Of a stretch of DNA of 64,000 bases, positions 1,599-17,765 are shown in pieces. The position numbers and the translations under genes were made by a program. The DNA is from Verrucomicrobiota bacterium (lineage in GTDB: Bacteria > Verrucomicrobiota > Verrucomicrobiia > Limisphaerales > CANJSG01), in assembly GCA_038209745.1 (NCBI GenBank), contig JBBQXJ010000012.1, positions 1 to 64,000 on the forward strand. Reading direction: 5' to 3'. The notes beneath the pieces were generated by a model, which saw only the letters and a program-made list of their open reading frames with translations, was not told where the DNA came from and did not search any database. The first letter of the stretch is position 1; every line of letters begins with the position of its first letter.

Positions 1599-3143
1599 AT
1601 GACTCCCCTGCTCCAACTCGCCTCCGTCACCAAACACTTCGGCGCCGTCCGCGCGCTCAAGGGCGTGTCGTTCGATCTGCGGGAGGGCGAGGTCCATGCG
1701 TTGCTCGGCGAGAACGGCGCGGGGAAGTCCACTCTGATCAAGGTCATCACCGGCGCGCTTCAACCCGATGGCGGCACCATCCAGGTCGCCGGCGAAACGG
1801 TCAGCAGGCTTACCCCCAGCGCCGCCCACCAGCTCGGCATCGCCTGCATCTACCAGCAACCCGCGCTCTTCCCGGACCTGACCGTCGCCGAGAACATCGG
1901 CCTACGCCTCGAACCGGACACTTCCTTCCGCAAGGTCAACTGGACCGGACGCCGCACCCGCGCCGCCGAACTCCTGCACCGTATCGGCGCCGAGATTTCG
2001 CCCGAAGCCGAGGTGCGTTCACTCTCCATGCCGGAGCAGCAACTGGTCGAGATCGCCTGCGCCCTCGGTTCCGGCGCCCGCATCGTCATCATGGACGAAC
2101 CGACCGCCTCGCTGACCCAGAAAGAGCAGCACCTGCTCTTCGGCGTCGTCCGCGACCTCCGCCAAAACGGCGTCGGCGTCGTCTACATTTCCCACCGCTT
2201 GGAGGAGATTTTCGCTTTGGCCGACCGTGTCACCGTCCTCCGCGACGGCGAAAGCGTCGCCACCCGCGACGTGCGCGTCGCTAGTGGCTCCGGCGCCCCC
2301 GCCAGTCCCCCGACCGATCTCACTGAAGCCGAACTCATCCGCCTCATGGTTGGCCGCGAGGTCGCCGCCATCTATCCGCCCTCCGAAGGCGAGGCTGGCG
2401 ACGTCGTCCTTTCCATCCAAGGTCTCGGCTGCACCGCCAGCGGCGTGAACAATGTCACCCTCGACGTCCGCGCCGGCGAGATTGTCGGCCTCGCCGGATT
2501 GGTCGGAGCCGGCCGCACCGAACTGGCCCGCATCCTCTTCGGCATCACCCCCGCCGACGCCGGCACCATCCGCCTCAGCGGCCAGACCATCACGGTTCAT
2601 TCACCGCAGGAAGCCGTCGCCCACGGCATCGCCTACGTGCCCGAGGATCGCCGCCGCCACGGCGTCATTCTCGAAATGCCCATCGCCGAAAACATGACGA
2701 TGGCCATCCATCGCCGCCTCTTTCCCGGCTCCTGGCTCCGCTTCGGCGCGGAACGGAACCTCGCGCTCGGCTTCATCCGCGATCTCGGCGTGAAAGCCTT
2801 CGGCCCCGAAGCGGCCGGCGGCAGCCTCAGCGGCGGCAACCAGCAGAAAGTCAGCGTCGCCCGTTGGCTCGCCACGAAACCCAAGCTCTTGATCCTCGAC
2901 GAACCGACCCAGGGCGTGGACGTCGGCGCGAAGAGCGAGATCCACAAGATCATCCGCCGCCTCGCCAAAGAAGGCCTCGCCGTCCTGATGATTTCCAGCG
3001 ATCTCCCCGAAGTGCTCGGCATGAGCGACCGCATTGCCGTGATGCGCGGCGGCACGATTGCCGCGATGCTGCCCGGCAAGTCCGACGCCCACACCGTCAT
3101 GGCCGCCGCCCTCGCCCAATCCGAGGCGGAGGCCGCCGCGTGA
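1599..3143 (+). CDS. Sugar (rhamnose-type) ABC transporter ATP-binding protein, two ATPase domains
   Basis: GENGAGKST Walker A, IMDEPT, LSGGNQQK signature, ILDEPT; context of rhaB/rhaM. Confidence 0.92.
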   Translation: MTPLLQLASVTKHFGAVRALKGVSFDLREGEVHALLGENGAGKSTLIKVITGALQPDGGTIQVAGETVSRLTPSAAHQLGIACIYQQPALFPDLTVAENIGLRLEPDTSFRKVNWTGRRTRAAELLHRIGAEISPEAEVRSLSMPEQQLVEIACALGSGARIVIMDEPTASLTQKEQHLLFGVVRDLRQNGVGVVYISHRLEEIFALADRVTVLRDGESVATRDVRVASGSGAPASPPTDLTEAELIRLMVGREVAAIYPPSEGEAGDVVLSIQGLGCTASGVNNVTLDVRAGEIVGLAGLVGAGRTELARILFGITPADAGTIRLSGQTITVHSPQEAVAHGIAYVPEDRRRHGVILEMPIAENMTMAIHRRLFPGSWLRFGAERNLALGFIRDLGVKAFGPEAAGGSLSGGNQQKVSVARWLATKPKLLILDEPTQGVDVGAKSEIHKIIRRLAKEGLAVLMISSDLPEVLGMSDRIAVMRGGTIAAMLPGKSDAHTVMAAALAQSEAEAAA

Positions 3144-4069
3144 AACGCCACTTCCGCGAAATCTCCGTCGCCGGCGCGCTGCTGCTGCTGCTCGGCTTCC
3201 TCGCCGTCTTTGCGCCGTCGTTCTTTCAGCCCCAGCCGCTTCTCTCGTTGCTGACCCGTGAAGCGCCGACGCTCGTCGTCGCCTGCGGCATGGCGATGGT
3301 CATCATCTGCCGCCAGATCGACATCTCCGTCGGCTCCATCTTCGCCGTGTGCAGCACCGCCGCCGGATTGCTGGCCGCCGCGAAGTGGCCGCTGGCCCTG
3401 GTCTTCCCCGCCTCCATGCTGATGGGTGCTCTGATGGGCGCGATCAACGGCGGACTCGTCGCCGGTCTTCGCCTTCCCTCCATCGTGGTCACGCTCGCCA
3501 CGCTGGTGACGTGGCGCGAGGCCTTGCGTTGGATCCGCCAGGGCGAATTCGTGAATCTCCCCGTCGATGTCCAGTGGATGGGCCTGAGCCAAGTCGGCGG
3601 ACAATGGGCGCTGATCGCAATCTCCCTCGCTGTCTTGATCGCCCTCGCCCTCGCGCTGAAGCACCTGTCGAGCGGCCGCTTCATCTACGCCGTCGGCACC
3701 GACGCCGAAGCCGCCCGTCTCGCCGGCATCCGACCGCAGCTCGTGACCTTTCTCGTCTTCGTGTTCCTCGGCGCGCTGACCGGCTTCGCCGCCATGATGA
3801 ACGTCGTCCAGTCCCCGCAGGTCGATCCCAAGTCCGGCACTGGATTGGAGCTGAAGACCATCGCCGCCGTGGTCGTGGGCGGCGTCGCCATCTCCGGCGG
3901 ACGCGGCACTCTCTGGGGCGCCTTCGTCGGCCTGCTGCTGCTCGCCTGCATCAGCCCCGCGCTGACCCATCTCCACATCGAGGCCTATTGGGAAAAGGCC
4001 ATTCAAGGCGCAATCATCCTGCTGGCCGTCGTGGCGGACGGATTGAGAAACCGGAAGGGAAATCGTTAA
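3140..4069 (+). CDS. Sugar ABC transporter permease (RhaP-like)
   Basis: GTG start overlaps the upstream stop (GTGA); IDISVGS, AARLAGI and AAVVVGG motifs. Confidence 0.9.
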   Translation: MKRHFREISVAGALLLLLGFLAVFAPSFFQPQPLLSLLTREAPTLVVACGMAMVIICRQIDISVGSIFAVCSTAAGLLAAAKWPLALVFPASMLMGALMGAINGGLVAGLRLPSIVVTLATLVTWREALRWIRQGEFVNLPVDVQWMGLSQVGGQWALIAISLAVLIALALALKHLSSGRFIYAVGTDAEAARLAGIRPQLVTFLVFVFLGALTGFAAMMNVVQSPQVDPKSGTGLELKTIAAVVVGGVAISGGRGTLWGAFVGLLLLACISPALTHLHIEAYWEKAIQGAIILLAVVADGLRNRKGNR

Positions 4070-4623
4070 TCTGCGCTGATCAATGAGAACTGAAATCTAC
4101 AAAGACGAAGGCTACAAGCTCATGGGAGCTGCGTTCGAGGTCTTCAACGACCGCGGCTACGGAATGGACGAGGAGATCTATCAGGAATGCCTCGAGATCG
4201 AGCTGGAGCTGCGCGGCATTCCGTTTCGATCCAAACAGGAACTGGCCTGCCAATATAAAGGCCGCGAGCTTCGCAAACGCTTCGTCCCGGACCTGTTCGT
4301 AAACGACGCGTTGATCGTCGAACTGAGAGCAGTCAGCCAAATTTGTCCCGAACAGGAAGCCCAACTCATGAACTACCTTAGGATCACCCGGCAACCGGTC
4401 GGCTACCTGATCAACTTCGGCCACAAGGACACGTTGGAATGGAAACGAATCGTCCTTTCCCAGTTCATCCGGCAGGACTGATTTTGAACCGCTAATCTGC
4501 GCTGATCGTCCCAATGAAAACCAAAGTCGTCATGCCCACCCGGTCTCCGGAGTCGTTCGAATTCACCGCTCCGCTCGACTTGGCAGAAAACAGATCAGCG
4601 TCGATCAGCGCAGATTAGCGGTT
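4061..4623. repeat. Direct and inverted 21-22-bp repeats bracketing the GxxExxY gene
   Basis: AACCGCTAATCTGCGCTGATCG at 4487-4508, its perfect inverse at 4602-4623, and a 19/21 direct copy at 4061-4081. Confidence 0.9.
4083..4481 (+). CDS. GxxExxY family protein (PD-(D/E)xK nuclease-like)
   Basis: GMDEEIY motif, PDLFV..IVELRAV, QLMNYL, GYLINFG. Confidence 0.9.
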   Translation: MRTEIYKDEGYKLMGAAFEVFNDRGYGMDEEIYQECLEIELELRGIPFRSKQELACQYKGRELRKRFVPDLFVNDALIVELRAVSQICPEQEAQLMNYLRITRQPVGYLINFGHKDTLEWKRIVLSQFIRQD

Positions 4624-4629
4624 TTTCAC

Positions 4630-5643
4630 ATGTTCTCATCCTCAAAACATAGCGGTTGGAAAACGGTGCTCGTCCGGCACGAGACGATCCTCTTCGTCGT
4701 CCTCGCGCTGGAATGGCTCTGCTTCAGCTCCGTCGGACCGCGTTTCGCCTCGCTCGACAACAGCTTCGACATCCTCCGGCACTCCACCGAAATCGGCCTG
4801 CTGGCGCTGGCCATGACGCCGATCATCCTGACCGGCGGCATCGATCTCTCCGTCGGTTCCCTGCTCGGCTTATGCGCCGTGGTGTTTGGAAAACTCTGGC
4901 GCGACGCCGGCATTCCCCTGCCCGCCGCCGCCGCCATCACCCTCGGCTTCGGCGCGCTGGCCGGCGGACTGAATGCCACGCTGATCACTTGGCTTCGGCT
5001 GCCACCGTTGATCGTCACGCTCGGCACCTACTCGCTCTTCCGCGGATCGGCCGAGGCGCTGACCCACGGCTTCGACACCTTCACCGACTTCCCGGCGTAT
5101 TTCCTCCACCTCGGTCAGGAACGACTGCTCGGTCTGCCGACGCAGGTCTGGGTCTTGATCCTCGTGGCTGTGGGAATCTGGCTGCTGGTTCATCGGACGA
5201 CCTACGGCCGCTCGTTCCGCGCCATTGGCTTCGCCCCGGAAGGCGCCCGCTACGCCGGACTTCCCGTCAAACGCTGCCTGGCCACGGCCTACGTGCTTGC
5301 GGGCTTCGTCGCCGCGCTGGCCGCGATCATCTACACCTCGCGCCTCGGCCAAGCGAAGGCCGACGCCGGCACCGGGTATGAACTCTTCGCCATCACGGCC
5401 GTGGTGCTCGGTGGCACCAGCATCTTTGGCGGCATCGGCACCGTTCATGGAACGCTCCTCGGAGTGGCCGCCATCGCCGTCCTGAGCAACGGCCTCGTCC
5501 ACGCCCGGGCGCCCCGCGAAGTCGCCGGCATGTTGACCGGAGCCCTCTTGATCCTGGCTCTGGTCAGCAGTGCGGTGCCGAAATGGTTCAGCCAATGGCG
5601 CGCCAAACGCCGGTCCGCCGCCGCAAAGCCCGCTTCCACCTGA
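4630..5643 (+). CDS. Sugar ABC transporter permease (RhaQ-like)
   Basis: GGIDLSVGS, ARYAGL, ITAVVLGGTSIFGG motifs; many TM segments. Confidence 0.9.
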   Translation: MFSSSKHSGWKTVLVRHETILFVVLALEWLCFSSVGPRFASLDNSFDILRHSTEIGLLALAMTPIILTGGIDLSVGSLLGLCAVVFGKLWRDAGIPLPAAAAITLGFGALAGGLNATLITWLRLPPLIVTLGTYSLFRGSAEALTHGFDTFTDFPAYFLHLGQERLLGLPTQVWVLILVAVGIWLLVHRTTYGRSFRAIGFAPEGARYAGLPVKRCLATAYVLAGFVAALAAIIYTSRLGQAKADAGTGYELFAITAVVLGGTSIFGGIGTVHGTLLGVAAIAVLSNGLVHARAPREVAGMLTGALLILALVSSAVPKWFSQWRAKRRSAAAKPAST

Positions 5644-5700
5644 CTCCAGGGCTGACAGCAAGGCACCAGAACCTTTAGACCAAACGCACCCAGCACGTTT

Positions 5701-6705
5701 ATGCAAAAACTCATCTCCTTCCTGGTCCTTTGCGGTCTCCTCGCGACCACCGGCTGCAACAAGTCGTCCGAATCCGGCGCCGCTTCCGCTTCCGGCAAGA
5801 AGCTGACTATCGCGCTCATGCCCAAGTCCAAGGGCAACGCCTATTTCATCTCCTGCAAGAAGGGCGCGGAGAAGGCCGCCACCGAGCTCGGCGCCGACCT
5901 CATCTTCGACGGCCCGACCGATCCCGATCCCGCCAAGCAGAACGAGATCATCGAGAACTGGATCACCCTCGGCGTGGACGTCATCGCCGCCGCGTGTGAG
6001 AACAAGGACGGCATCTCCACCGCCCTCCGCAAGGCCCGGCAAAAGGGCATCAAGGTCATTACCTACGATTCCGACGCGCAGACCGACGCCCGTTCGTTCT
6101 TCGTCAATCAAGCTACGCCCGCGGGCATCGGCTACGCCCTCATGGACGAAGCCGCGCGCCTTACCGGCGGCAAGGGCGACTACGCCATCATCACCGCCAG
6201 CCTGACCGCCGCGAACATGAACGAGTGGCAGAAGCACATCGCCGCCCGCAACGCCGAGAAGTATCCCGAGATGAAGAGGGTCGCCCTCCGTCCCTGCGAC
6301 GACCTCAAGGACAAGGCCCAGTCCGAAGCCACCGCCCTCCTCAGCACCTACCCCAATCTCAAGCTCATCATGAACATCTGCTCCCCCGCCGTGCCCGGAG
6401 CCGCCGAAGCCGTCAAGCAAGCCGGCAAGACCGGGATGGTGAAGGTCATCGGCCTCGGTCTGCCCAATGAAAACAAGCGCTACGTCCACGAAGGCGTGAC
6501 CGACAGCGTCATCCTCTGGAACACCGAAGACCTCGGCTACCTCACCGTCCAAGCCGCCGCCGCCCTGGCCAAAGGCACCCTCAAGGTCGGCGAGAAGACC
6601 TTCAAAGCCGGCACACTCGGCGAGTTCCAGATCGAGGGCGACAACATCCTCCTCGGCAAGCCCTTCATCTTCAACAAGGGCAACATCGACCAGTTCAACT
6701 TCTGA
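5701..6705 (+). CDS. Rhamnose-type ABC substrate-binding lipoprotein
   Basis: Lipobox-like ATTGC, PKSKGNAYF, TYDSD, LWN..DLGY, ending NIDQFNF. Confidence 0.88.
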   Translation: MQKLISFLVLCGLLATTGCNKSSESGAASASGKKLTIALMPKSKGNAYFISCKKGAEKAATELGADLIFDGPTDPDPAKQNEIIENWITLGVDVIAAACENKDGISTALRKARQKGIKVITYDSDAQTDARSFFVNQATPAGIGYALMDEAARLTGGKGDYAIITASLTAANMNEWQKHIAARNAEKYPEMKRVALRPCDDLKDKAQSEATALLSTYPNLKLIMNICSPAVPGAAEAVKQAGKTGMVKVIGLGLPNENKRYVHEGVTDSVILWNTEDLGYLTVQAAAALAKGTLKVGEKTFKAGTLGEFQIEGDNILLGKPFIFNKGNIDQFNF

Positions 6706-6861
6706 GTCGGGGCGAGTTGAACCGCAGATCAACGCGGAAGATCGCAGATAAAAGGCAGACCAAGACCAGCGCCGAATCCGCCTCTGCCCAAGGCAACGCT
6801 CTGGGTCCATCGCCCGCCAAACAACCTAAGACCTGAAAGGGCGACCTAACCAAACCTCCTG

Positions 6862-7314
6862 ATGCCCCAGTCTCTCGCCTCGCTCCTGACGCACTTGGTC
6901 TTCAGCACCAAGCACGACGAGCCGTTGATCCACGTCGGCGTCCGGGACGAACTTTACCGCTACGCCGCGACGATCCTTCAGGATCTGGACTCACCTGCCA
7001 TCCTGATCAACTCGGTCGAGGACCACGTCCACGCGCTGTTCGCCCTGTCGAAGAACCACGCGCTGAAGGATGTAGTGGAGAAACTGAAGACCGGGACGTC
7101 CAAGTGGATCAAACGACGCGATCTGATGCTGGCGAACTTCTATTGGCAGGCCGGCTACGGCCCCTTCTCCGTCAGCCAGTCGAACGGGGCGGCGGTAACG
7201 CGCTACATCGCCGGACAAAAGGAACACCACACCAAGGTGTCGTTTCAGGACGAGGTGCGGTTGGTCTTCCGGAAGCACCGGATGGATTTCGATGAACGAT
7301 ATGTGTGGAATTGA
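6862..7314 (+). mobile_element. tnpA: IS200/IS605-family Y1 transposase (RAYT-like TnpA), no tnpB
   Basis: HLVFSTK, HUH motif DHVH, WQAGY, catalytic Y in YIAGQKEHH; flanked by inverted REP units at 6786-6850 and 7321-7410. Confidence 0.88.
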
Positions 7315-7459
7315 ACCTCGGTTAAACCGCCCTTTCACGGCTCGTCCAAAGGCAAACGTGGCGACCCAGGGCGTTGGCCTGGGCTCCATTAAGGCCGGCC
7401 CGTTGGGCCTCGCCACCGGCCGCCTCGCGGCGTGCCTCACAACCTGCCGCCTCACGGTG

Positions 7460-8350
7460 ATGGTCGTTACCCTGCTGATCGGAAGCCTTGGTCCGGCATT
7501 TGCCGAAACCACCGCCAGCCCCTCCACCAACGACTGGCTCTTCATCGACAACGGCGAGGTCCGCCTCGGCGTCATCCGTTCGTCCGGCGCGGGCATCGCG
7601 TGGTTCGCGCCGAGCGGCTCGACCAACAACCTCGTCAACCACTGGGATCGCGGCCGTCTGATCCAGCAGTCCTACTATGGCGACGAAGACGGTTCGCTCT
7701 GGAACAAACAACCTTGGCGCTGGAATCCGGTCCAAGGCGGCGATTGGCAGGGCAAACCCGCCACCGTGCTGGAGCTGACGCACACCACGAATTCGCTCTA
7801 CGCAAAAACCGTCGCCCGCCATTGGGCGTCCGGAGCCGAGTTGACCAACGTCGTCTTCGAGGAATGGATCTCGCTCACCGGACGACTGGCGCAGGTGCGC
7901 TTCCGCATGACCTATTCCGGCACGAATTCCCATGCCTCCCGCGACCACGAAATCCCCGCCGTCTTCGTCGCGCCGGAGCTCGATTCGCTCGTGCTCTATG
8001 AGGGCGACCAGCCCTGGACCGGCGGCGATCTCCACCGCTCCAAGCCCGGTTGGCCCAATGAATCGCGGCGCATGACCGAGCACTGGGCCGCCTACGTCGG
8101 AACCAACGACGTCGGTCTCGGCGTCTGCGTGCCCGTGAGCGACCACCTGACCTGCTACCGCTTCGGCGACGGTCGGCCGGACCACGGATCCTGCTCCTAC
8201 TTCGCCCCGCTCACGAACTTCGCGATCACGCCTGGCAAGATCTTTACCTACGACGTGTACCTCTTCGCCGGCTCGGTTCCCGAAATCCGCCAAACGTTCT
8301 CCACCCGTTCAGGGCTATTGCCGGCCACGGCTCCGGCGGGCGACCATTGA
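7460..8350 (+). CDS. Hypothetical secreted protein (frame open from 7292)
   Basis: Genome-typical codon use, hydrophobic N-terminus ending PAFA, Trp/Tyr-rich body; start uncertain. Confidence 0.7.
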   Translation: MVVTLLIGSLGPAFAETTASPSTNDWLFIDNGEVRLGVIRSSGAGIAWFAPSGSTNNLVNHWDRGRLIQQSYYGDEDGSLWNKQPWRWNPVQGGDWQGKPATVLELTHTTNSLYAKTVARHWASGAELTNVVFEEWISLTGRLAQVRFRMTYSGTNSHASRDHEIPAVFVAPELDSLVLYEGDQPWTGGDLHRSKPGWPNESRRMTEHWAAYVGTNDVGLGVCVPVSDHLTCYRFGDGRPDHGSCSYFAPLTNFAITPGKIFTYDVYLFAGSVPEIRQTFSTRSGLLPATAPAGDH

Positions 8351-8367
8351 CCCGGAAACTGTTGGCA

Positions 8368-9885
8368 ATGCCCGAACAAATCTATCTTGGAATCGACCTC
8401 GGCGCCGAAAGCGGCCGCGTCATGGCCGGCCTTTGGAACGGCTCCGAAATGCGGCTCGACGAGCTGCACCGTTTTCCCAACGTCACCGTCGATCTCGGCG
8501 GCTCGCTCCGCTGGGACCTGCTTCGTCTGTGGAGCGACATCCAGCACGGACTCGCCCTCGCCGCCCGTCGCTACGGCAACGCCATCATCTCCATCGGCGT
8601 CGACACCTGGGCCCTCGACTACGTGCTCCTGTCCAAGTCCGGCGAAATGCTCGGCCAGCCCCACTGCTACCGCGACCACCGGACCCAGGGCGTGATGGAG
8701 GAGGTGCTGCGCTCGGTCGGCCGCGAAGAAGTCTTTGCCCAGAGCGGCCTCCAGTTCCTCCCCTTCAACACGCTCTACCAGCTCGTCGCCCATCAGCGCC
8801 AGAGCCCGGAAACGCTCGCCGCCGCCGAGACGCTCCTGATGATTCCCGACTTCATCAATTGGTGCCTGTCCGGCGCCAAGACGGTCGAGTTCACCAACGC
8901 CACGACGACCCAGTTCTTTCACCCGACCAAGCGCGACTGGTCGCTCGATCTGCTCCATCGCCTCGGACTTCCCACGAAGATCTTCCCGGAGATCATCCTG
9001 CCCGGCTCCATCGTCGGCAGCCTGCGCCAGAGCGTCATCGACCGCACCGGATTGCGTCGCTTGCCGATCATCGCCCCGGCCACGCACGACACCGGTTCCG
9101 CCGTCGCCGCCGTGCCCACGCTGAACACCGGCCGGACGAACTGGGCCTACATCAGCTCCGGCACCTGGTCGCTCATGGGCGTCGAGACCCCATCGGCCGT
9201 CCTCGGTCCCAAGGCGCTCGAGTTCAATGTCACCAACGAAGGCGGCGTCGACGGTACCTATCGGGTGTTGAAGAACATCATGGGCCTCTGGCTCGTGCAG
9301 CGGTGCAAACACTCCTTCGACGCGCGCGGCCTGACCCACGACTACGGCCAGCTCGTCACCTTGGCCGAACAGGCCCAGCCCCTCCGGTCGTTGATCGACC
9401 CCGACGACCGCCGCTTCCTCAGTCCGGCCGACATGCCGAATGCCATCCAGGAATTCTGCCGCGAAACCGGCCAGCCCGTTCCCACGACGGAAGGCCAGCT
9501 CGTCCGCTGCTGCCTCGAAAGCCTCGCGCTGAAATACGCCGTGGTGCTCGACCAGTTGGAACAGCTCACCGGCGAACGCGCCGAGGTCATCCACATCGTG
9601 GGCGGAGGTTCGCGCAACATCCTGCTGAATCTCCTCGCCGCGAACGCCTGCCAGCGCCCCGTTCTCGCCGGCCCGGTCGAGGCCACCGTCCTGGGCAACC
9701 TGCTCGTCCAGGCCCGTGCCGCCGGCGAAGTCGCGTCCCTCGCCGAGATCCGTGAATCGATCTACCACTCCGTCGTCCCGGCGTCGTCCGAGCCCGTGCC
9801 GGCGGAGACCGCGATGTGGCAGCAGGCCCGGCAACGCTTCGCGAAGTTGCTTCAGCCCGCCGGCCCCGACAAAGTCTTCGCGTGA
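8368..9885 (+). CDS. rhaB: Rhamnulokinase (FGGY family)
   Basis: [48 protein letters not shown]. Confidence 0.92.
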
Positions 9886-10199
9886 TCCGCAAAGCCTTTG
9901 TCATGTCCGTCCATCCCGGCCAAGAAGCCGAGTATGGGCGGCGTCACAATCCCGTCTGGCCCGAGCTGGAAGCCGTCCTGAAGGATCACGGCGTGGCCCA
10001 CTACTCCATCTTCCTCCACGCCGAAACCCGCCAGCTCTTCGCCTACGCCGAGATCGAGGACGAAGCCCGTTGGGCCGCCATCGCCCAGACCGGAGTTTGC
10101 CGCAAATGGTGGCACCACATGGCCGACCTGATGCCGGCCCATCCGGACAACAGCCCGGTTTCGGTTGAATTGCAGGAAGTCTTCCACATCGAGAAATGA
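9882..10199 (+). CDS. rhaM: L-rhamnose mutarotase
   Basis: GTG start overlapping the rhaB stop; [35 protein letters not shown]. Confidence 0.92.
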
Positions 10200-10211
10200 G
10201 CCACCGTCTTC

Positions 10212-10426
10212 AATCCCGAGGAGATTGTGTCCCTCAGCCCAAGGTTGCCGCGCAGCGGCTACTCTGGGTCACGATTGGAAACGACCATCAACCCCAACCG
10301 GGTTGCGTCTTTGGTCGGTCGCCAATGGACACAACCCCTTCAAGGTTGGCTCAATCGTGGACCCCGATTCCCGGGGTAGCTCGTGCCTCGCAACCCTGGG
10401 CTAAGTGCGGGGGTCCCGTCGGGATT
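10212..10426. repeat. Inverted REP doublet (REPIN/BIME-like)
   Basis: AATCCC..AGCCCAAGGTTG..GCTACTCTGGG..CAACCCC mirrored by ..GGTTG..CCCGGGGTAGC..CAACCCTGGGCT..GGGATT. Confidence 0.7.
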
Positions 10427-10554
10427 CACCGGAAGGACGAAATTCTCCACGCCGTGTCGGCGGGCCTCTTTGCGCCTCTTGTGCTTCTTTGCGGCCATCG
10501 CCTTCCCCCTTTCTCCCCCGCTCCCCTGCACCCCGTGCTCCGCCCAATCACCCC

Positions 10555-11274
10555 ATGATCGTCTCCCTCTTCATCCCGTGCTTCGTCGACCTGATGTATC
10601 CCAAGGTGGGCATCAGCATCGTCGAAATCCTCGAACGTCTCGGCCACCGCATCGACTACCCGGAAGACCTCACCTGCTGCGGGCAGCCCGCCTTCAACTC
10701 CGGCTTTTGGGACGAAGCCCGCCAGGTCGCCCTGCCCGTCCTGCAACGACTGAAGAACTCCGAGGCCGTCGTCATCGCCTCCGGTTCCTGCGGCGCCATG
10801 CTCAAGGTCTTCTACCCGGAACTCTTCGCCGGCACCCCGCACGCCGCCGCCGCCAAGGAACTCTCGGCCAAGTGCTACGAGTTCTCCGACTTCCTCGTCA
10901 CCAAGCTGGGCGTGACCGACCTCGGCGCCGCCTTCCCGCACAAGGTCACCATCCACGACGGTTGCCACGGCCTGCGTGAACTCGGACTGAAGAAAGGCGC
11001 CCGAGACTTGCTCGGCAAAGTGCGCGGACTCGAACTCGTCGAGATGAAGGAGGCGGAAACCTGCTGCGGTTTCGGAGGCACCTTCGCGGCCAAGTTCCCC
11101 ATGATCTCCACCGCGATGGGCGAGGTGAAATGCGCCTCGGCCTTCGACACCGGAGCCGACTACATCGTGTCGAACGACTCCAGTTGCCTGATGCAGGTCC
11201 AAGGACTGTTGAGCAAACAGGGCAACGGGCTGAAGACGATCCACTTGGCGGAGATCCTGAACTCAAGGGACTGA
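10555..11274 (+). CDS. lutA: Lactate utilization protein A (CCG-domain Fe-S protein, LutA/YkgE)
   Basis: [39 protein letters not shown]. Confidence 0.9.
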
Positions 11275-11314
11275 TGCCGGATGCCGGATTCCAGACAAGA
11301 ACAGAGAACGCGAA

Positions 11315-11770
11315 ATGAGCGCGACCAACTACAACGACGGAGCACGAGACGGCTCGGACGACGCGTTTGTGCTCAATAACGCCACGCCGGCGATGGGCTA
11401 TCGCGCTCTGCAGATTTGGCAGCTCGCAAGGGACACGACCGTGACGGTCCACCGCATGACCTTGGAAAAGCAACCCCGCTTCGAGCTGCACGAAGAAGGC
11501 AGCCAAATACGCCGCTCCGCGAAGTCAGTTCGATCCAACATCGTCGAAGGCTTTGGTCGGCGGCGTTACAAGCAGGATTTCATCGAACACCTCGTCTACG
11601 CCGAAGCCTCCTGCGACGAGATCCGCGACCATCTCGACACCTTGAACGAGACCGCTTCTCTGACCGACAAGCCATTCTACGACGGGTTGGTTCAGCAAGT
11701 GAACGAACTGGCCCGAAAGATCATCCGCTTCATCACCGCCGTGGAACAAAACCACCAGAGCCCGAAATGA
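11315..11770 (+). CDS. Four helix bundle protein (23S rRNA IVP-like family)
   Basis: [36 protein letters not shown]; bracketed by inverted GATGCCG heptamer repeats. Confidence 0.9.
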
Positions 11771-11849
11771 TCGTCACGATTTCATCCTTCGCTTCCTTTC
11801 GCCGCCATCCGGCATCCGGAATCAGGCATCCTGGATCACCCCTTCTCCC

Positions 11850-13244
11850 ATGACCACCGAAGTCCAAGAATTCAAACAGCAGGCCACCAAGGTCGCCGCC
11901 GATCTCCGCCACCGGAAGCACATCCAGACCGCGCTCGGCAAATACGAGGTCGTCCGCGACAAGCGCAAGAACGCCTTCCAGAGCTGGAACGACGCCCGCC
12001 AGATCGCCGCCGAGACCAAGTGGGAGGCCATCAACCACCTCGACGAACACCTCGTCTCCTTCGCCGACAAGCTGGAGGCCCGCGGCACCCATGTCCATTG
12101 GGCCACCACCGCCACCCAGGCCCGCAACATCATCCTCGGCCTCATCCAGGCGAAGGGCGCCAAATCCATCATCAAGTCCAAGGCCATGACCGCCGAGGAG
12201 ATCCACCTCAACCCCGCGCTGGAGAAGGCCGGCTTCGAGGTCGTTGAATCCGATCTCGGCGAATACATCGTCCAGCTCCGCAACGAGCCGCCCTACCACA
12301 TCGTCTTCCCGGCGATGCACCTCGACCGGCACCAGATCAGCGAGCTCTTTGAGAAGCACCTCGGCAGCGCGAAGACCGACAGTCCCGAGGAACTCACCAT
12401 GATCGCCCGGCGCGCCCTCCGGGAAAAATACATCACCGCCGACGTCGGCATCACCGGGGCCAACTTCGCCATCGCCGAGACCGGCATGGTTTCCATCACG
12501 GAAAACGAGGGCAACGCCCGCCTCACCGCCGCGCTGCCCAGGACCATGATCACTCTGCTCGGCATCGAGAAGGTGCTCCCGCGCATGGCCGATCTCGCGC
12601 TTTTCCTGCCCATGCTCGCCACCGCCGGCGCCGGCCAGCAGATCACCGGCTACAACACCATGTATTCCGGCCCGCGCCAGCCCGGCGAAGCCGACGGACC
12701 CGAGGAATACCACGTCGTCCTCATCGACAACCACCGCACCGAGCTCCTGGCCGATCCCGAACAGCGCGACACCCTCCACTGCATCCGTTGCGGCGCCTGC
12801 CTGAACGTCTGCCCCATCTTCAAGAACGTCGGCGGCCACACCTACGGCACCACCTACAGCGGCCCCATCGGCTCCGTCATCACCCCGCACCTGCGCGGGT
12901 TGCAGAACTGGAAACACCTCTCCTTCTCCTCCTCCCTCTGCGGCGCCTGCACCGAAGCCTGCCCGGTGAAGATCAACCTCCACCACCACCTCCTGCACAA
13001 CCGCCGCAACTCGGTGAAACAGGAACCCGACCCGCAGGAACGCGTCGCCTTCAAGCTCTTCGCCTGGGGCATGAACAGCCCCGGTGTCTATGCCGCCGGC
13101 AAGAGCGTCGCCCGCTGGCTCGCCCCGCTGCACAAGCTGGTCATGGGAACCTTCCTCGACCCCGCCAAATCCTGGACCAAGACCCGCGACCTCCCGCCCA
13201 TCGCCGAGACGACCTTCAAGGAATATTGGAAGAACCGGCAGTGA
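11850..13244 (+). CDS. lutB: Lactate utilization protein B (LutB/YkgF)
   Basis: KSKAMTAEEI, ESDLGEYIVQL, ENEGN, CIRCGACLNVCP, SSLCGACTEACPVKI. Confidence 0.92.
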   Translation: MTTEVQEFKQQATKVAADLRHRKHIQTALGKYEVVRDKRKNAFQSWNDARQIAAETKWEAINHLDEHLVSFADKLEARGTHVHWATTATQARNIILGLIQAKGAKSIIKSKAMTAEEIHLNPALEKAGFEVVESDLGEYIVQLRNEPPYHIVFPAMHLDRHQISELFEKHLGSAKTDSPEELTMIARRALREKYITADVGITGANFAIAETGMVSITENEGNARLTAALPRTMITLLGIEKVLPRMADLALFLPMLATAGAGQQITGYNTMYSGPRQPGEADGPEEYHVVLIDNHRTELLADPEQRDTLHCIRCGACLNVCPIFKNVGGHTYGTTYSGPIGSVITPHLRGLQNWKHLSFSSSLCGACTEACPVKINLHHHLLHNRRNSVKQEPDPQERVAFKLFAWGMNSPGVYAAGKSVARWLAPLHKLVMGTFLDPAKSWTKTRDLPPIAETTFKEYWKNRQ

Positions 13245-13294
13245 CCGTGGGGTAGGATTGCAGCCCAGCCGCCCAACTGATTTCTTAACCACAG

Positions 13295-13699
13295 ATGAAC
13301 ACGGATGGACACAGATCAGCCAAGCTTCGCCTGCTTGGGGATTATCGCGGCAACCCGGCTGAACTGTTCGATGGTTTTGAGCCTGATCAGCTACCGTTCA
13401 ATCCAGATGCCTTTGGAATAACCGGCTATGAAACGGTTGATTTGGTGAAGAGCGCATTGTCGGCTCCGCCTCCGGGTTCTTCCGAAAAGGAACTTCTTGA
13501 TACGATCTGTTCGTCTGTTTCACCCAGGGTCCAAGTTTGGAACAAGTCAGCCGGATGCATCGAATCGCGTTCCGGCTACTACGCATTCTCGGCTTCACAA
13601 AGCGACTCGGGACGACTCGCCATCTTGTATTCGTTCTTCGAGGTCTCACCGATGAGGTACCACGCCTACCTGCACGCCATTCTTCAGATCGATTTTTGA
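13295..13699 (+). CDS. Hypothetical protein, atypical composition; ATG lies inside the flanking repeat
   Basis: 134-codon open frame, visibly lower GC than the operon; no recognisable family. Confidence 0.45.
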   Translation: MNTDGHRSAKLRLLGDYRGNPAELFDGFEPDQLPFNPDAFGITGYETVDLVKSALSAPPPGSSEKELLDTICSSVSPRVQVWNKSAGCIESRSGYYAFSASQSDSGRLAILYSFFEVSPMRYHAYLHAILQIDF

Positions 13700-13748
13700 T
13701 GAATCGCCTGAGAGAAACGTAATCGAACTGACTTCATCTCAACCGCAC

Positions 13749-14096
13749 ATGAACACCTTCAACGAAACCTTCGGCTTCATCTTCGCCTTGTGCGCCGGAG
13801 TCATGATCTTGGCCGTCTTCTTCACGGCTCTTGGCTATCTCAAGAGAGGGGTTCGTGGTCCTGGGGTGCTGAAGATGAAGGGCTTTGTCCGGGAGGGTAA
13901 GCGGATCAACGTCCATCTGGCTGGCGGCCGCACCTTGGAAAACTTTCAGTTCGTCGGCTTCACCGAGCAGAACTCAGCCAAAGGAGTGATCCCCTATCAG
14001 TTGGCCAGCATGGCCGTCTTCGAGTGCGAAACGGGATCGAGAGCCATGGTCCGAGCCGATTCGATCCGTATGATCGAGGAAATAGACGCCACCTAA
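13749..14096 (+). CDS. Hypothetical protein with N-terminal TM helix
   Basis: 115 aa; FGFIFALCAGVMILAVFFTALGYL hydrophobic segment followed by a small soluble domain. Confidence 0.65.
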   Translation: MNTFNETFGFIFALCAGVMILAVFFTALGYLKRGVRGPGVLKMKGFVREGKRINVHLAGGRTLENFQFVGFTEQNSAKGVIPYQLASMAVFECETGSRAMVRADSIRMIEEIDAT

Positions 14097-14194
14097 TCGC
14101 TCCGCCTTGTTCCCTATCTGTGTGAATCTGTGTCCATCTGTGGTTGTCCTCTTCCCCCATGACTGAACGCGCTTCAACGCCCCAACCCAAACCA

Positions 14195-14405
14195 GCGGCA
14201 GCCATTAGCTGGAGGTCGAGGAGCGCGTTGCGCGACGACACCTCCGATTCGCCGCCCAAACATTCACGACCCCATCGGGATCGCAGCAGGCCGCCAACCT
14301 CCAATTCCGCTGGCATCCTTTCCGGATGCGTCCCGTGGCTCCGCCCGGTCCGGGCGTGTCGCTCCGCTCAACCCCCGGCCAATCGCTGTCAGCCTTCCAG
14401 GCTGA
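14195..14405. repeat. Degenerate inverted REP doublet
   Basis: GCAGCCATTAGCTGGAGGTCGAGGAGCG..CGACACCTCCG mirrored by CGGGCGTGTCGCTCCGCTCAACCCCCGGCCAATCGCTG; short palindromes GCATCCTTTCCGGATGC and CAGCCTTCCAGGCTG. Confidence 0.6.
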
Positions 14406-14555
14406 AGACAGACCGATCCTTCGTCGTTTCCCATCTGTGTGAATCTGTGTCCATCTGTGGTTTCTCCACTTCCCCGACTGAACGCGTAGCGACTCCCGCT
14501 ACCTTTCCCCGTCTGCGTCCTTCCGCATTTTCCGCGGTTAACTCCCCCTTCTCCC

Positions 14556-15263
14556 ATGACTGAACGCGAAAAAATCCTCGGCCGCATCCGCGAAGCCCTG
14601 ACCCTCTCCGCCCCGCCTCCCGGCGAACACGGACCGGACACCGACGCCCACGGCGGGCACCCGATCCAATTCGCCCCGCGTGCCGCCGCCACCCACGCCC
14701 GCGAGTGGTTGCCCAAGGCCGCGGAGACCTTCGAGGCGCAGGTCGAGCAGTTCCGCGCCTGCTCGGACGATCTCAAGACCGAGTTCATCGTCGCCGATTC
14801 GTTGGCCGACTTGCCCAAGATCCTCGGCGATCTCCGCCAACGCGAAGGCTGGAAGGGAGCCGCCGCGCACAAGGGCGAATTGACCGACGCCGCCGTCCAC
14901 GCCTTGGGCCTGCCCACGCTGACCGTCGACGGCGGCTACGACGTCCACGCGCTGGAGCGTTGCGACGTCGGCATCACCGAATGCGACGCGCTCGTGGCCC
15001 AGACCGGCACGCTCGTCGTCAACTCCCGCACCTCCGGCGGACGCGCCCTGTCCATTCTGCCGCCGCACCACCTGGTCATCGCCCGGCGCGACCAGCTCAT
15101 GGCCGATCTCCCCGCCGCCTTCGAGGCCATCCAGGCCAAATACGCGCCGGACTTTCCCAGCATGATCTCCCTCGTCACCGGCCCCAGCCGCACCGGCGAC
15201 ATCGAGCGCATCCTCGTCCTCGGCGCCCACGGCCCGAAGAAACTGACCGTCGTGCTGGTCTGA
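14556..15263 (+). CDS. lutC: Lactate utilization protein C (LUD domain, LutC/YkgG)
   Basis: VAQTGTL, GRALSILPPHH, VTGPSRTGDIERILVLGAHGP. Confidence 0.9.
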   Translation: MTEREKILGRIREALTLSAPPPGEHGPDTDAHGGHPIQFAPRAAATHAREWLPKAAETFEAQVEQFRACSDDLKTEFIVADSLADLPKILGDLRQREGWKGAAAHKGELTDAAVHALGLPTLTVDGGYDVHALERCDVGITECDALVAQTGTLVVNSRTSGGRALSILPPHHLVIARRDQLMADLPAAFEAIQAKYAPDFPSMISLVTGPSRTGDIERILVLGAHGPKKLTVVLV

Positions 15264-15270
15264 ATGGTCG

Positions 15271-15471
15271 ATCAGCCACAGCACCGTCGCGGTGAGCGTG
15301 CTCCGCGCCGATTGCGCCCAAGCCGATGCTTGGGGCGCGGCTCTCAATGTCCTCGGGGCCGATCACGGACTTGCCGCCGCGGACAAGCTTGGGCTTGCCG
15401 TCCAGTTCACCGTCGAGGATGAAGACGGGGCGCTGTGGCTGGTTCCAAGCCATTGGCGGCCCGCCCGATAA
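15271..15471 (+). pseudogene. 3' remnant of ApbE-family FAD:protein FMN transferase
   Basis: Start-less frame ISHSTVAVSVLRADCAQADAWGAALNVLGADHGLAAADKLGLAVQF..* resembles the ApbE C-terminus (SVSV..AD A(W)ATAL.VLG). Confidence 0.65.
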
Positions 15472-15506
15472 GCGAAACTTCATCCGATTCAACCGCGTCT
15501 ACCCGC

Positions 15507-17765
15507 ATGGTGCGTCTGCTCCGAACACGTCTCTGGATCGTCCCGTTGATCATCGCCGGGCTGGTGGCGGCATTTGGCTGGTGGGGCAACGGCCGGCTCC
15601 GGCAGGTCATCGTCACAGACCTGCAGGGCGACCTTTCGACGGCCATCAATGCCAACGTGACCGCGTTGGAGATCTGGACCACCAACCAGATGAAGCTGGC
15701 CACCGCGCTGGCGGATGAGCCCAGATTCCGCCAGCTCGCCGATCAAACTCTCGAGCAGTTCGCCGCGAATCCCCGGCCAAACCAGGGATCCTCCAGTGCC
15801 GAGGAGTTGGCGACGTATCTCCGTCCGAGACTGAACAAGATCGGCTATGAGATCGCCGAGCTGGTGAGCACGAACTTCTCCTTCGCCGCCAATACGATGA
15901 GCCCGCGCGGCCGGAGCCGCCGCAACTCGACGGTGCTGGACGAGCACATGGCGAAGTTCGCCGAGCTGTTCACCCACGGTGAGCCGATTCTGATCACGCC
16001 GTTCAAACCGAAACGGCCACCGGGGCCCTCTCCGTTTCAAGGACGCCGCGACGGACCGGCGCGCCCCGAAGGAGGACCCGGACGAGGCTTAGACGACCGC
16101 CCACCGTCCCGGCGGACCAATGAGCCGCCCGCCCGGATCGGCGCGGCCCTGAACCGCGCCCGCATGGGCGACCGGACGTTGATGCAGGTCGCGGCGCCGG
16201 TGCGGAACGACGACGGCGTGATCCTTGGGGCGTTGGCCCTGATCATCAATCCGGACGAGGAGTTCACCCGGATCCTGTCGGTCGCCAGGTCGGGTCGCTC
16301 GGGGGAAACGTATGCGTTCGACCAGCACGGTCTGATGATTTCACGCAGCCGTTTCGACGATACGCTCAAGCAGCTTGGGCTCATCGAAAACCGTGCCGGA
16401 GCCAGTTCCGCGCTGAATCTGCGGCTCAGCGATCCAGGCAGGGACTTCCCGACCCGGGTCGAGCCCGAGGAGACCAATTCGATCACGCGCCCCCTGATCC
16501 AACTCGTGTCCTCGGCCTTCGCGACGAACCAAGGTGTGAGCATCTCCGCAGCGCGCGACTACCGCGGAGTGCCCGTGATCGGAGCGTGGCACTGGCTGCC
16601 GCACCTGGGCTTCGGCGTGATCACGCAGATCGACGCGGAGGAGGCCTTCCGCCCGTTGAACGTCCTCAAATCGATCTTCCTGATCCTCGTTCTGCTGTTG
16701 CTGCTGTGTTCCATCGGCATGTTCGTCTTTTCCTATCTCGGCTCGATTTCCAGACGGCGTCTGACCGAGGTGGAGCTGAAGCTGAAACAGCTCGGCCAAT
16801 ACACGCTGGAGGAGAAGATCGGCGAGGGAGGCATGGGCGTCGTCTACCGCGCCCGCCATGCGCTCATGCGCCGCGACACCGCCGTGAAGCTGCTCCCGCC
16901 CGACAAGGCCCATCCCGAGGCCATCGCCCGTTTCGAGCGCGAAGTCTGCCTCACCTGCCAGCTCACCCATCCGAACACCATCCAGGTCTACGACTACGGC
17001 CACACGCCCGAAGGCGTCTTCTACTTCGCCATGGAGTATCTCAACGGCCTGAACCTCCACGATCTGGTCGATCGCTTCGGCCCGCTGCCCGAAGGCCGCG
17101 TGATCCACATCCTGACGCAGGTCTGCGCCTCCCTCGCCGAAGCCCACGCGCTCGGCCTCGTCCACCGCGACATCAAGCCGGCCAATGTCTTCCTCTGCGA
17201 CCGGGGTGGCCTGCCCGATCTCGTGAAGGTGCTGGATTTCGGCCTCGTGCGACAGTTCCTGAAAGCCGATGGCGCCGTGCCCGACGCGACCCCCGAGAGG
17301 GGCGCGGTCGGCACGCCCTCGTTCATGTCTCCGGAGGCGATCCGCGATCCCAACCGCAGCGATCCCCGCAGCGACATCTACGCGATCGGCGCGCTCGGCT
17401 ACTTCCTCCTCACCGCCCACAACGTCTTCGAAGGCGACAATCTCGTCGACCTCTACGCCCGCCACTTGAAGGAGCGCCCAGCCCAGCCCAGCAGCCGCAC
17501 CGACAACAAGATCACGCCCGAGCTCGAACAGATCTTGCTGAAATGCCTGGAGAAAGATCCCGCTAACCGCCCGCCCCACGTCGTCCGTCTGCGCGAACAA
17601 TTTGCGACCAGCCCGGCGGCGGCCGATTGGAGCCCGGTCGCCCGCTCCAGCTGGTGGAACCAATACCATCGCGAAGCCGGCAACGAAGAGGCTTCGCGCC
17701 GCCACCCCACCCCGATCGCCGACGCCACGGTCCTGATCGATTTCGCGACCCGGATCCACGAGTGA
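15507..17765 (+). CDS. Membrane Ser/Thr protein kinase with extracytoplasmic Cache-like sensor
   Basis: Two TM helices; ETYAFD..GLMIS and DYRGVPVIGAW Cache-like motifs; IGEGGMGVVY, HRDIKPAN, DFG, GTPSFMSPE. Confidence 0.9.
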   Translation: MVRLLRTRLWIVPLIIAGLVAAFGWWGNGRLRQVIVTDLQGDLSTAINANVTALEIWTTNQMKLATALADEPRFRQLADQTLEQFAANPRPNQGSSSAEELATYLRPRLNKIGYEIAELVSTNFSFAANTMSPRGRSRRNSTVLDEHMAKFAELFTHGEPILITPFKPKRPPGPSPFQGRRDGPARPEGGPGRGLDDRPPSRRTNEPPARIGAALNRARMGDRTLMQVAAPVRNDDGVILGALALIINPDEEFTRILSVARSGRSGETYAFDQHGLMISRSRFDDTLKQLGLIENRAGASSALNLRLSDPGRDFPTRVEPEETNSITRPLIQLVSSAFATNQGVSISAARDYRGVPVIGAWHWLPHLGFGVITQIDAEEAFRPLNVLKSIFLILVLLLLLCSIGMFVFSYLGSISRRRLTEVELKLKQLGQYTLEEKIGEGGMGVVYRARHALMRRDTAVKLLPPDKAHPEAIARFEREVCLTCQLTHPNTIQVYDYGHTPEGVFYFAMEYLNGLNLHDLVDRFGPLPEGRVIHILTQVCASLAEAHALGLVHRDIKPANVFLCDRGGLPDLVKVLDFGLVRQFLKADGAVPDATPERGAVGTPSFMSPEAIRDPNRSDPRSDIYAIGALGYFLLTAHNVFEGDNLVDLYARHLKERPAQPSSRTDNKITPELEQILLKCLEKDPANRPPHVVRLREQFATSPAAADWSPVARSSWWNQYHREAGNEEASRRHPTPIADATVLIDFATRIHE

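Follow-up and report, generated by a model that had tools for sequence, protein, structure and literature searches.

Hairpin-ended gene cassettes as candidate occupants of operon junctions in a Verrucomicrobiota genome

We analyzed a 64,000-nucleotide (nt) stretch of DNA, hereafter the window, from a Verrucomicrobiota bacterium (GenBank assembly GCA_038209745.1, contig JBBQXJ010000012.1, here C12), in which a rha-lut operon carries extra DNA between its genes. We favour, with modest confidence, the reading that the operon junctions hold three kinds of small element, the chief kind being a hairpin-ended cassette with related gene-less and passenger forms. In such a cassette, two inverted arms built of tandem words would surround a small gene transcribed with the operon. 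The inserts concerned share this architecture and have been gained, lost, degraded or replaced among congeners; genes and arm words are inherited jointly and co-occur at the level of genomes, and the cargo is under purifying selection.

Inserts at the operon junctions and their counterparts in congeners

The source assembly (4.58 Mb, 140 contigs, 92% complete; G000 below) contains the operon at positions 1599-15263 of the window, on the + strand, to which the genes, arms, relic starts and composite inserts given below also refer. It codes for an ABC ATPase, two permeases, a sugar-binding protein, a protein of 330-352 amino acids (aa), an FGGY kinase (rhaB-like), RhaM, LutA, LutB and LutC. Extra DNA is present at five junctions: a GxxExxY gene, a Y1 transposase gene, 355 non-coding bases between rhaM and lutA, a four-helix gene, and 1.3 kb with two open reading frames (ORFs) between lutB and lutC. 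A preliminary description of this DNA had reported five junctions with co-oriented inserts and no broken gene, and gene profiles and a repeat search confirm it: all inserted genes are oriented as the operon, and zero operon genes are interrupted. The guanine-plus-cytosine (GC) content of the inserts is 52-58%, compared to about 66% for the operon. The GTGA coupling reported for the ATPase-permease and rhaB-rhaM junctions is also correct, the ORF coordinates placing overlaps at 3140-3143 and 9882-9885.

The first insert, between the two permease genes, contains a GxxExxY/PDDEXK_3 gene of PD-(D/E)XK fold at 4083-4481 (Pfam, 8e-38 and 129.8 bits for a cut-off of 22; TIGR04256, 127.7 bits for a cut-off of 35). 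To its left lies a degenerate left-type arm, AAATCGTTAATCTGCGCTGATC (4060-4081), within which the upstream permease gene has its stop (TAA, 4067-4069); this arm is 91% complementary over 22 nt to 4603-4624. To its right lies a complete gene-less hairpin (4487-4624), whose arms, AACCGCTAATCTGCGCTGATCG and its complement, match perfectly (4487-4508 with 4602-4623, 22 nt, 100%) around a 93-nt loop. This hairpin, the arm family of which has members at about 8 further loci in the genome, finishes 5 nt upstream of the start of the second permease gene (4630).

The four-helix cassette (11271-11832) consists of a heptamer arm (11271-11291) that provides the lutA stop codon, a four-helix/23S_rRNA_IVP gene at 11315-11770 (TIGR02436, 83.4 bits for a cut-off of 24; PF05635, 79.9 bits for 33.8), and a second heptamer arm (11805-11832); positions 11271-11289 pair with 11807-11825 over 19 nt at 95%. 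Between lutB and lutC, a passenger cassette (13287-14145) has arms of CACAGAT words at 13287-13316 and 14116-14145, the left one matching both the right one and a further copy at 14433-14462 (30 nt, 87%). It encloses orf134 (13295-13699) and orf115 (13749-14096), neither of which was assigned to a family by profile search. In the 120 other genomes of the order, orf115 has homologues in 2 (46-50% identity) and orf134 in none; orf134 also has a low coding score and may be doubtful as a gene.

Three more arms are unpartnered: a left-type word arm AACCGCAGATCAACGCGGAAGATCGCAGAT at 6720-6749, found at the same place in congeners G005 and G001, and right-type arms at 10465-10496 (CTCTTTGCGCC..TTTGCGGCC) and 14511-14539 (GTCTGCGTCCTTCCGCATTTTCCGCGGTT). 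The last, which lies 16 nt upstream of the real lutC start (14556), is kept in G001, G003 and G004, and shares its word family with hairpins at C28:42012 and C86:10625. The arms of the preliminary description are present, the one at 4061 in degenerate form.

All these arms are arrays of tandem words, either of about 10 nt (CACAGATGAA/CACGGATGGA/CACAGAT and CGCTAATCTG/CGCTGATC) or of 7 nt (GATGCCG). A triple-word pattern has 39 matches in the genome, versus 0 in shuffled sequences and 0 for a control with the pattern written backwards. That the cargo would be folded into an mRNA stem-loop, as had been proposed, agrees with whole-cassette folds, in which arms are predicted to pair across the cargo with probabilities of 0.69 (four-helix), 0.99 (GxxExxY) and 0.89 (lutB-lutC cargo); these are thermodynamic values that ignore co-transcriptional folding and ribosomes. 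Duplex energies of the 200-nt flanks were uninformative, being dominated by non-specific GC pairing, and a search for RNA runs covering 4600-14590 gave none.

We compared the operon with that of five species of the same genus (G001, G003, G004, G005 and G006, whose LutB proteins are 89-92% identical) and of four other families. Nine junctions were examined in the congeners; the four-helix locus of contig C3, whose neighbours belong to a large paralogous family, was left out. The preliminary description had called for a comparison of filled and empty versions in relatives, and the junctions indeed differ: they were found empty, filled, decayed or differently filled. Between the permease genes, only the window genome has the GxxExxY cassette; G001, G003 and G005 have a GTGA overlap, and G013 and G028 are also empty. 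Downstream of the binding-protein gene, tnpA is found in the window genome, G005 and G001, while G003 reads TGAgATG without it. The rhaM-lutA junction, filled in the window genome, is an ATGA overlap in G003, G001 and G004, and G005 has different contents with the same right arm.

The lutA-lutB junction is the most varied. The four-helix gene is intact in the window genome and in G003; in G004 it is cut by another palindromic element, the arms being kept; in G006 a 3' remnant of it stands behind a new ORF and a 156-nt copy of the lutB start; in G001 it is replaced by an unrelated 166-aa ORF without arms; and it is absent from G005. At lutB-lutC, none of the five congeners is empty and no two of the six genomes share an ORF, whereas lutB and lutC abut in the other families. 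The congener ORFs code for a DUF7660 protein in G004 (1e-19), a DUF3592 protein in G001 (29.1 bits for a cut-off of 25.3), proteins of 157 aa in G005 and 143 aa in G003, and a 131-aa membrane protein in G006. The right CACAGAT arm is retained there in 5 of the 6 genomes.

Three junctions outside the operon behave alike. Between cysH and cysD, the window genome has a short hairpin and a GxxExxY gene, G006 a GxxExxY gene, G005 a gene-less CACAGAT hairpin, and G001, G003 and G004 nothing. Between the E2 and lpd genes, the window genome has a four-helix gene, four genomes are empty, and in G004 a 74-aa ORF is followed by a HicA toxin gene (7e-17), without arms. Between two ABC exporter genes, the window genome has a four-helix gene, G003 and G006 are empty, and in G001 the same arms surround an element of the repetitive extragenic palindromic (REP) type and no gene. 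Alleles without an insert keep the two genes in tight coupling, through GTGA, ATGA, TGAgATG or TGAccATG or across a spacer of 14-20 nt.

Two side observations concern these loci. The 20-nt spacer of the empty cysH-cysD alleles (L036, L038 and L039, from G004, G003 and G001) reads CCCGTGGTTAAGGAG.. and keeps the last six bases of the right arm (GTGGTT) directly 5' of an AAGGAG Shine-Dalgarno motif; judging from these letters, it may be a trace left by a lost hairpin and not a site that was always empty. At E2-lpd, the HicA genes occupy 148-590 of locus L046 (G004:C27:27780-28500), the 74-aa ORF being presumably the antitoxin.

Within the species, strains about 98% alike, seen as contigs of four DNA runs, retain the GxxExxY, tnpA, rhaM-lutA and four-helix inserts. 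Most contig joints at arms were rejected as strain rearrangements, as their sides measure only 20-34 letters and derive from other repeat copies. In two of the runs (X2 and X7, again strains about 98% alike), contigs join 13250 to 14128, and also 14287 back to 13748. The former joint has a side of 44 and reaches main-strain depth in X7. Depth over orf134 is about 8, compared to about 28 elsewhere. Within the species, the lutB-lutC modules seem to vary in order or content.

Word arms, gene-less hairpins and GxxExxY genes

An inverted-repeat scan of the whole genome gave 167 elements with both arms intergenic, of which 32, after collapsing, have tandem-word arms. Where the neighbours are known (n=31), these word-armed hairpins lie between co-oriented genes in 25 cases, divergent genes in 5 and convergent genes in 1, compared to 57, 9 and 40 for REP-like elements without tandem structure (co-oriented versus convergent, Fisher p 1.3e-4). 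Among all spacers of at least 60 nt, 1331 (62%) are co-oriented, 516 divergent and 313 convergent. The preliminary description had inferred a targeting of translation-coupled junctions; this does not follow, since 25 of 31 co-oriented hairpins against 62% of such spacers are equally compatible with mere tolerance.

The genome has 31 hairpins of the AACC..GGTT kind. Their outer flanks are both pyrimidine-rich on the coding strand. Only 2 alike pairs were found among 24 loops, and orthologous hairpins of congeners differ in their loops and even in their words. The word pairs that flank GxxExxY genes (CGCTAAT/CGCTGAT, CACGAAT/CACGGAT, and CACAGAT) are those of the three commonest families of gene-less hairpins; for two smaller families, CGCAGAA and GGCCGCAAA, the assembly contains no matching gene. 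Beside this, upstream of a thrS-like gene (L026-L029; C32:44511-45242 in G000), a hairpin lies 12 nt 5' of the start codon in all 5 genomes seen, with words (CACAGAT, CACGAAT, CACGGAT) and a loop that vary among genomes, the flanking gene being 84-90% identical.

The link between gene and arms extends to other phyla. For 80 GxxExxY loci taken from public genomes of many phyla, 78 of them usable, the inverted-repeat score of the flanks exceeded the maximum of 69 offset controls in 64 of 78 cases (median 24.5 versus 11). The best arm period was 9-10 nt at 54 of 65 loci, and tandem CRC..A. words were present at 72 of 74. Mapped on the protein tree, the word core requires 20 changes, compared to 39.7 after shuffling, and 0 of 200 shuffles went as low, a test that near-copies among the loci inflate. 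One GxxExxY clade with 98% support intermixes records from Verrucomicrobiota, Planctomycetota and Acidobacteriota. A heuristic based on the strand of flanking genes ('++' at 45 of 62 foreign loci) was discarded, as it mis-called the flank strand at 6 of 7 loci of this genome for which it is known, for both flanks in 4.

Within the order, the number of triple-word arrays ranges from 0 to 136 per genome, and tracks that of PF13366 genes in 41 genomes; with one genome per genus (35 genera), arrays and GxxExxY genes are correlated (Spearman rho 0.70, p 3e-6). In this 35-genus set, at least 3 arm arrays were found in 20 of the 26 genomes with a GxxExxY gene and in 1 of the 9 without. The backwards pattern stayed near zero across genomes. 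In G000, G005, G017 and G024, the commonest word of the genome is one that stands beside a GxxExxY gene.

The window genome has only 3 PDDEXK_3 and 6 intervening sequence (IVS)-protein genes, all 9 between co-oriented neighbours. Compared with 191 control genes, the flank inverted-repeat score is in the top 2.1% or better for 7 of these 9 genes; one is at 7.3% and one shows nothing. Windows were set relative to the protein domain, as strict ORF-based windows missed arms inside mis-called ORF ends.

Concerning the cargo proteins, the AlphaFold2 model of the GxxExxY protein (pLDDT 93.9) matches Cas4 SSO0001, lambda exonuclease and Hjc at TM-scores (TMq) of 0.4-0.57, so that the modelled fold is a generic PD-(D/E)XK one; a sequence search of the PDB matched no solved structure. 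A listing in the review PMC3424549 gives the function of PF13366 as unknown. The window copy has D70, E80 and R82, the K of the motif being replaced by R; the copy at cysH-cysD (contig C89) has AG instead of PD, and the C32 copy has an intact motif. Ratios of nonsynonymous to synonymous substitution rates (dN/dS) are 0.06 and 0.09 for GxxExxY, 0.21 for the four-helix gene and 0.15-0.18 for tnpA, host genes being at 0.20-0.39; the cargo proteins are under purifying selection.

REP-type elements, relic starts and neighbouring genes

The insert downstream of the binding-protein gene is a unit (6786-7385) that resembles the REP-associated tyrosine transposase (RAYT) kind. Nested around the Y1 gene tnpA (6862-7314) are an inverted repeat on each side (6829-6851 and 7320-7342, 23 nt, 78%) and, outside these, REP palindromes (6786-6806 and 7363-7385). 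TnpA scores 68.4 bits with Pfam Y1_Tnp (cut-off 23), 20.4 with NCBIfam REP_Tyr_transpos (80) and 48.4 with the IS200 profile (55), and is one of 2 full-length Y1 genes in the genome. The orthologs at the same site in G005 and G001 are 76-77% identical in aa; G003 has none. In the G005 ortholog (L001, 7040-7048), codon 3 is TAA, compared to CAA in G001; beyond it the two proteins are 91% identical with a dN/dS of 0.08, which points either to a very recent inactivation or to a downstream start. The preliminary description had joined to this insert the hypothetical gene that follows; tnpA stands, and the 352-aa gene does not, as in G003 it directly follows the binding-protein gene (TGAgATG) without tnpA.

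The rhaM-lutA insert (10200-10554) is made of a palindromic doublet (about 10205-10465) and the unpartnered right-type arm already mentioned, its left edge being a degenerate copy of the lutA 5' end. A REPIN-like palindromic doublet lies at 14173-14430, downstream of the passenger cassette. Both REP doublets that had been announced are thus present, with unequal copy numbers: the first has one other copy in the genome, and the second is found at about 7 other loci (67-91% identity), including the relic-start locus on contig C51 described below. tnpA and the REP doublets form a separate class that appears ordinary and similar to the known RAYT/REP type. The inserts are not the single system that had been proposed, the hairpin cassettes being distinct from this class. 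A HicA pair and other ORFs also enter the same junctions in relatives without arms. The first interpretation is partly borne out, in that the junctions are dynamic sites of insertion and hairpins enclose most of the cargo.

Downstream of the right arms, the lutC start occurs three times. A relic made of a pyrimidine tract and ATGACTGAACGCG (14146-14171, repeat family D15; also in G001 and G003, degenerate in G004) has the complete start at 14159. After the REPIN-like doublet, a second copy of the right arm (14433-14462) is followed by a truncated relic, GACTGAACGCG, at 14476-14486 (family D13: 37 nt, 95%), and the real start is at 14556. The lutC relic is 13 nt long, compared to 156 nt for the lutB relic of G006. 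Duplicated gene 5' ends were found elsewhere in the genome at C2:95882 (121 nt, 97.5%) and C51:26037 (102 nt, 93%), and at both loci (C2:94600-96150 and C51:25300-26250) the order is a low-GC ORF, the relic, REP elements and the intact gene. Copies of 5' ends are not enriched genome-wide (16 of 1968 spacers, versus 19, 19 and 8 for control offsets).

Sequence comparison identifies the relic starts as copies of the 5' end of the gene downstream, and their order would fit a one-sided homologous recombination with an illegitimate second join. Homology-facilitated illegitimate recombination during natural transformation is a general recombination route, not an element. It would give the order observed: upstream gene, cargo, truncated 5' end of the downstream gene, old spacer, intact gene. 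It accounts for the relic starts and for allele replacement, not for the arms. Regeneration of the downstream start by the inserts, as first proposed, is better read as a target duplication or a recombination scar. As for the pyrimidine tract and start codon said to follow most right arms, the relic starts are real, and pyrimidine-rich leaders with CC before ATG are a trait of the whole genome. A Shine-Dalgarno-like motif precedes only 13% of 2914 confident gene starts of G000, with C at positions -1 and -2 in 51-52%; translation in this genome seems to start largely without Shine-Dalgarno pairing.

Two neighbouring genes deserve mention. The 330-352-aa protein (7358-8350, in an ORF open from 7292), encoded between the sugar-binding protein and the kinase, belongs to no Pfam or NCBIfam family and falls in unnamed clusters of 54-256 members from Verrucomicrobiota and Planctomycetota. 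Every congener seen has its gene in the operon, and the corresponding operon of other families lacks it; the protein may be an unrecognised component of the rhamnose pathway or of uptake. Downstream of lutC, on the same strand, 15435-17765 codes for a 776-aa protein with a weak Cache-like match and a Ser/Thr kinase domain.

Readings of the cassettes and comparison with known systems

In the reading that we favour, arm words of roughly 10 nt, patterned CRCNRAW and in most cases ending AACC...GGTT, would mark cassettes that carry a GxxExxY gene when complete, and arm words of 7-8 nt those with a four-helix (23S-IVS protein) gene. Gene-less hairpins and passenger cassettes, such as the lutB-lutC cargo, would be non-autonomous relatives of these, as REPs are of RAYTs. 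The GxxExxY nuclease might start recombination by working on the arms that surround its gene, folded in DNA as a hairpin or cruciform. In polycistronic mRNA the arms could form a long stem cut by RNase III, as in ribosomal RNA (rRNA) IVS, in which case an insert at a junction would do little harm. Recombination anchored in the genes on either side would carry filled alleles from one relative to another, with relic 5' ends left where a join was one-sided and illegitimate, while tnpA with its REP palindromes and the REP doublets would be a RAYT/REP-type system nesting in the same spacers.

A wider proposal, which we put forward only tentatively and hold to be rather doubtful, is that GxxExxY and four-helix IVS proteins are the trans-acting parts of one widespread and undescribed class of hairpin cassettes. 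The rRNA IVS would be the subset that landed in rRNA, and the usual habitat would be co-transcribed junctions, where removal by RNase III would leave the elements nearly silent. Gene-less and passenger copies would then serve as a platform for the exchange of orphan, toxin-antitoxin-like and immunity-like genes. A literature search found no publication describing such hairpin cassettes, and the GxxExxY papers that it returned were not about repeats or mobility.

Several observations weigh against the hairpin-cassette reading. No movement was seen: the same cassette occurs at two loci of this genome only for adjacent hairpins of C32. Orthologous cassettes are about as diverged as the genes that flank them, which makes them old residents rather than recent arrivals. 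No target-site duplication was found at the AACC..GGTT hairpins, 22 of 31 of which have no flanking direct repeat, and their unique loops are not what a copy-and-paste miniature inverted-repeat transposable element (MITE) would leave. Two of the 3 GxxExxY copies lack a canonical catalytic residue and are nevertheless under purifying selection, so that nuclease action on the arms is putative. The HicA pair and other ORFs that share these junctions without arms indicate that arms are unnecessary for gene entry. The correlation between arrays and genes is somewhat inflated, each GxxExxY gene adding its own 2-4 arms to the count, and it has exceptions: G037 (83% complete) has 21 arm arrays and no GxxExxY gene, and G036 and G038 have the gene and no arrays of the strict pattern. 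Finally, genes were called with a home-made program, whose output was compared with the window's Pfam-supported genes only.

Many of these points would be expected under the rival that survives best, which we nevertheless judge unlikely, namely that there is no dedicated mobile element and that word-array hairpins are host RNA or DNA signals changing in place. The hairpins could, for instance, act between cistrons as stem-loops that govern processing or stability of the mRNA, or as arrays of sites to which proteins bind, and would evolve by slippage and by conversion within the hairpin. GxxExxY and four-helix proteins would be word binders beneficial to the host, and small genes would arrive at junctions through generic recombination, illegitimate or homology-facilitated, and persist there as the only neutral places of a genome that is 86% coding. 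Orthologous hairpins that hold their position while words (CACAGAT, CACGAAT, CACGGAT) and loops change speak for such signals, as do the unique loops without target-site duplication, cassettes as old as their flanks with cargo under purifying selection, and the entry of HicA and other ORFs without arms. So do the number of heptamers in the Coxiella IVS, which varies by slippage, and the pyrimidine-rich flanks on the coding strand, an asymmetry between strands that agrees with selection acting on the RNA. Host signals account poorly for the arm word following the protein tree across host phyla, which calls for joint horizontal transfer of gene and arms, and for a distribution as sporadic as 0 to 136 arrays per genome in one order. 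They also leave aside the low GC content of the cargo (52-58% versus about 66% for the operon) and the empty alleles, which work without any hairpin.

A homing-endonuclease-like spread appears less probable still. Free-standing seg and mob genes, of the homing-endonuclease type, lie between genes of phage T4, and GxxExxY might likewise cut the empty allele of a related cell, repair then copying the cassette and its flank, with arms of secondary importance. The nuclease fold and the variable presence of cassettes between conserved genes agree with this. Filled cysH-cysD alleles moreover share the first roughly 20 nt of cysD (ATGAGCAGCTA..), the empty ones sharing ATGAGTTCC.., and the lutB+lutC tree does not unite the genomes with filled alleles, which resembles co-conversion or allele transfer; the deep branches of that tree are, however, weakly supported (0.51-0.81). 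Homing also implies a single site, whereas one protein clade occupies many unrelated junctions; it leaves unexplained the near-universal arms (64 of 78 loci) and roughly 30 gene-less hairpins, and four-helix cassettes have no nuclease. An integron-like system, in which the hairpins would be attC-like sites for a tyrosine recombinase encoded elsewhere that swaps promoterless co-oriented ORFs, would suit the promoterless, co-oriented cargo unrelated between genomes, its turnover at one site with one arm kept, and some units (such as 4083-4624) in which an ORF is followed by one hairpin, about 140 nt long and AAC..GTT-like at its ends. It is highly improbable given that no integron integrase was found in the 92%-complete assembly (best TIGR02249 match 95.6 bits for a cut-off of 265), that cassettes are single and scattered with no array beside an integrase, that most loci have arms on both sides of the gene, and that the ends, by inspection against the consensus sequences, misfit the RYYYAAC / GTTRRRY cores.

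GxxExxY and four-helix-bundle proteins are among the commonest unexplained families of small bacterial genes, and the window brings both under one architecture, together with many hairpins of tandem words in intergenic DNA. Tightly spaced operon junctions tend to be regarded as fixed, but can exchange small genes rapidly, with six ORFs in six species at lutB-lutC. This bears on the annotation of orphan genes and on how operon structure is read in metagenome-assembled genomes. Under the hairpin-cassette reading, every protein clade should recognise its own words, RNase III should cut the stems formed by the arms, and cassettes should be gained and lost at the named junctions within the genus.

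Among known elements, MITEs and IS200/IS605-type hairpin elements are likewise short, non-coding intergenic hairpins, with conserved termini as in the AACC..GGTT hairpins. Unlike them, the word-armed hairpins have no target-site duplication, no shared internal sequence and no associated transposase of a known family. Integron cassettes with attC sites likewise join imperfect hairpins to small ORFs that lack promoters, share one orientation, are unrelated to each other and turn over at one site; here no integron integrase was found, there is no array, and arms usually flank the ORF on both sides.

In REP/REPIN-RAYT systems, a 'master' protein gene has on either side palindromic repeats that also occur without a gene across intergenic spacers, and REPIN spacers are conserved. 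The cassettes resemble these systems in that their gene is flanked by repeats also dispersed without gene, in the correlation between gene and repeat counts, and in the absence of target-site duplication at word-armed hairpins, the tnpA unit at 6786-7385 being itself RAYT-like. They differ by a protein of PD-(D/E)XK or four-helix fold instead of an HUH Y1 transposase, by arms that are tandem-word arrays, and by gene-less loops that are unique, in contrast to the conserved REPIN spacers. Word-armed hairpins lie between co-oriented genes, whereas 40 of the 106 oriented REP-like elements of this genome are convergent.

The closest architecture is that of the rRNA IVS. In the account that PMC4990558 gives of the Coxiella burnetii 23S rRNA IVS, the 5' arm consists of three tandem GACAGAT heptamers, in a number that varies among strains, and RNase III cuts at the first repeat; the same account speaks of ORF-bearing rRNA IVS as having had no accepted origin since about 1990. 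As in Coxiella (PMC4990558), a gene of the S23p/four-helix family lies between inverted, stem-forming arms, an arm is made of tandem heptamers, GACAGAT containing the ACAGAT core of the commonest word of G000, the GC content is below that of the host and the distribution is sporadic. Excision by RNase III has been demonstrated for the IVS and is presumed for the present cassettes, and the Coxiella ORF is described as apparently decaying and unexpressed, unlike the cargo here, which is under purifying selection (PMC4990558). The inserts of the window genome also differ by their place, in junctions of protein-coding operons instead of rRNA helix 45, by a cargo that further includes nuclease-fold GxxExxY genes and unrelated ORFs, and by numerous gene-less copies. 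The word-armed cassettes thus have an IVS-like architecture and a REPIN/RAYT-like genomic distribution, and are members of neither group.

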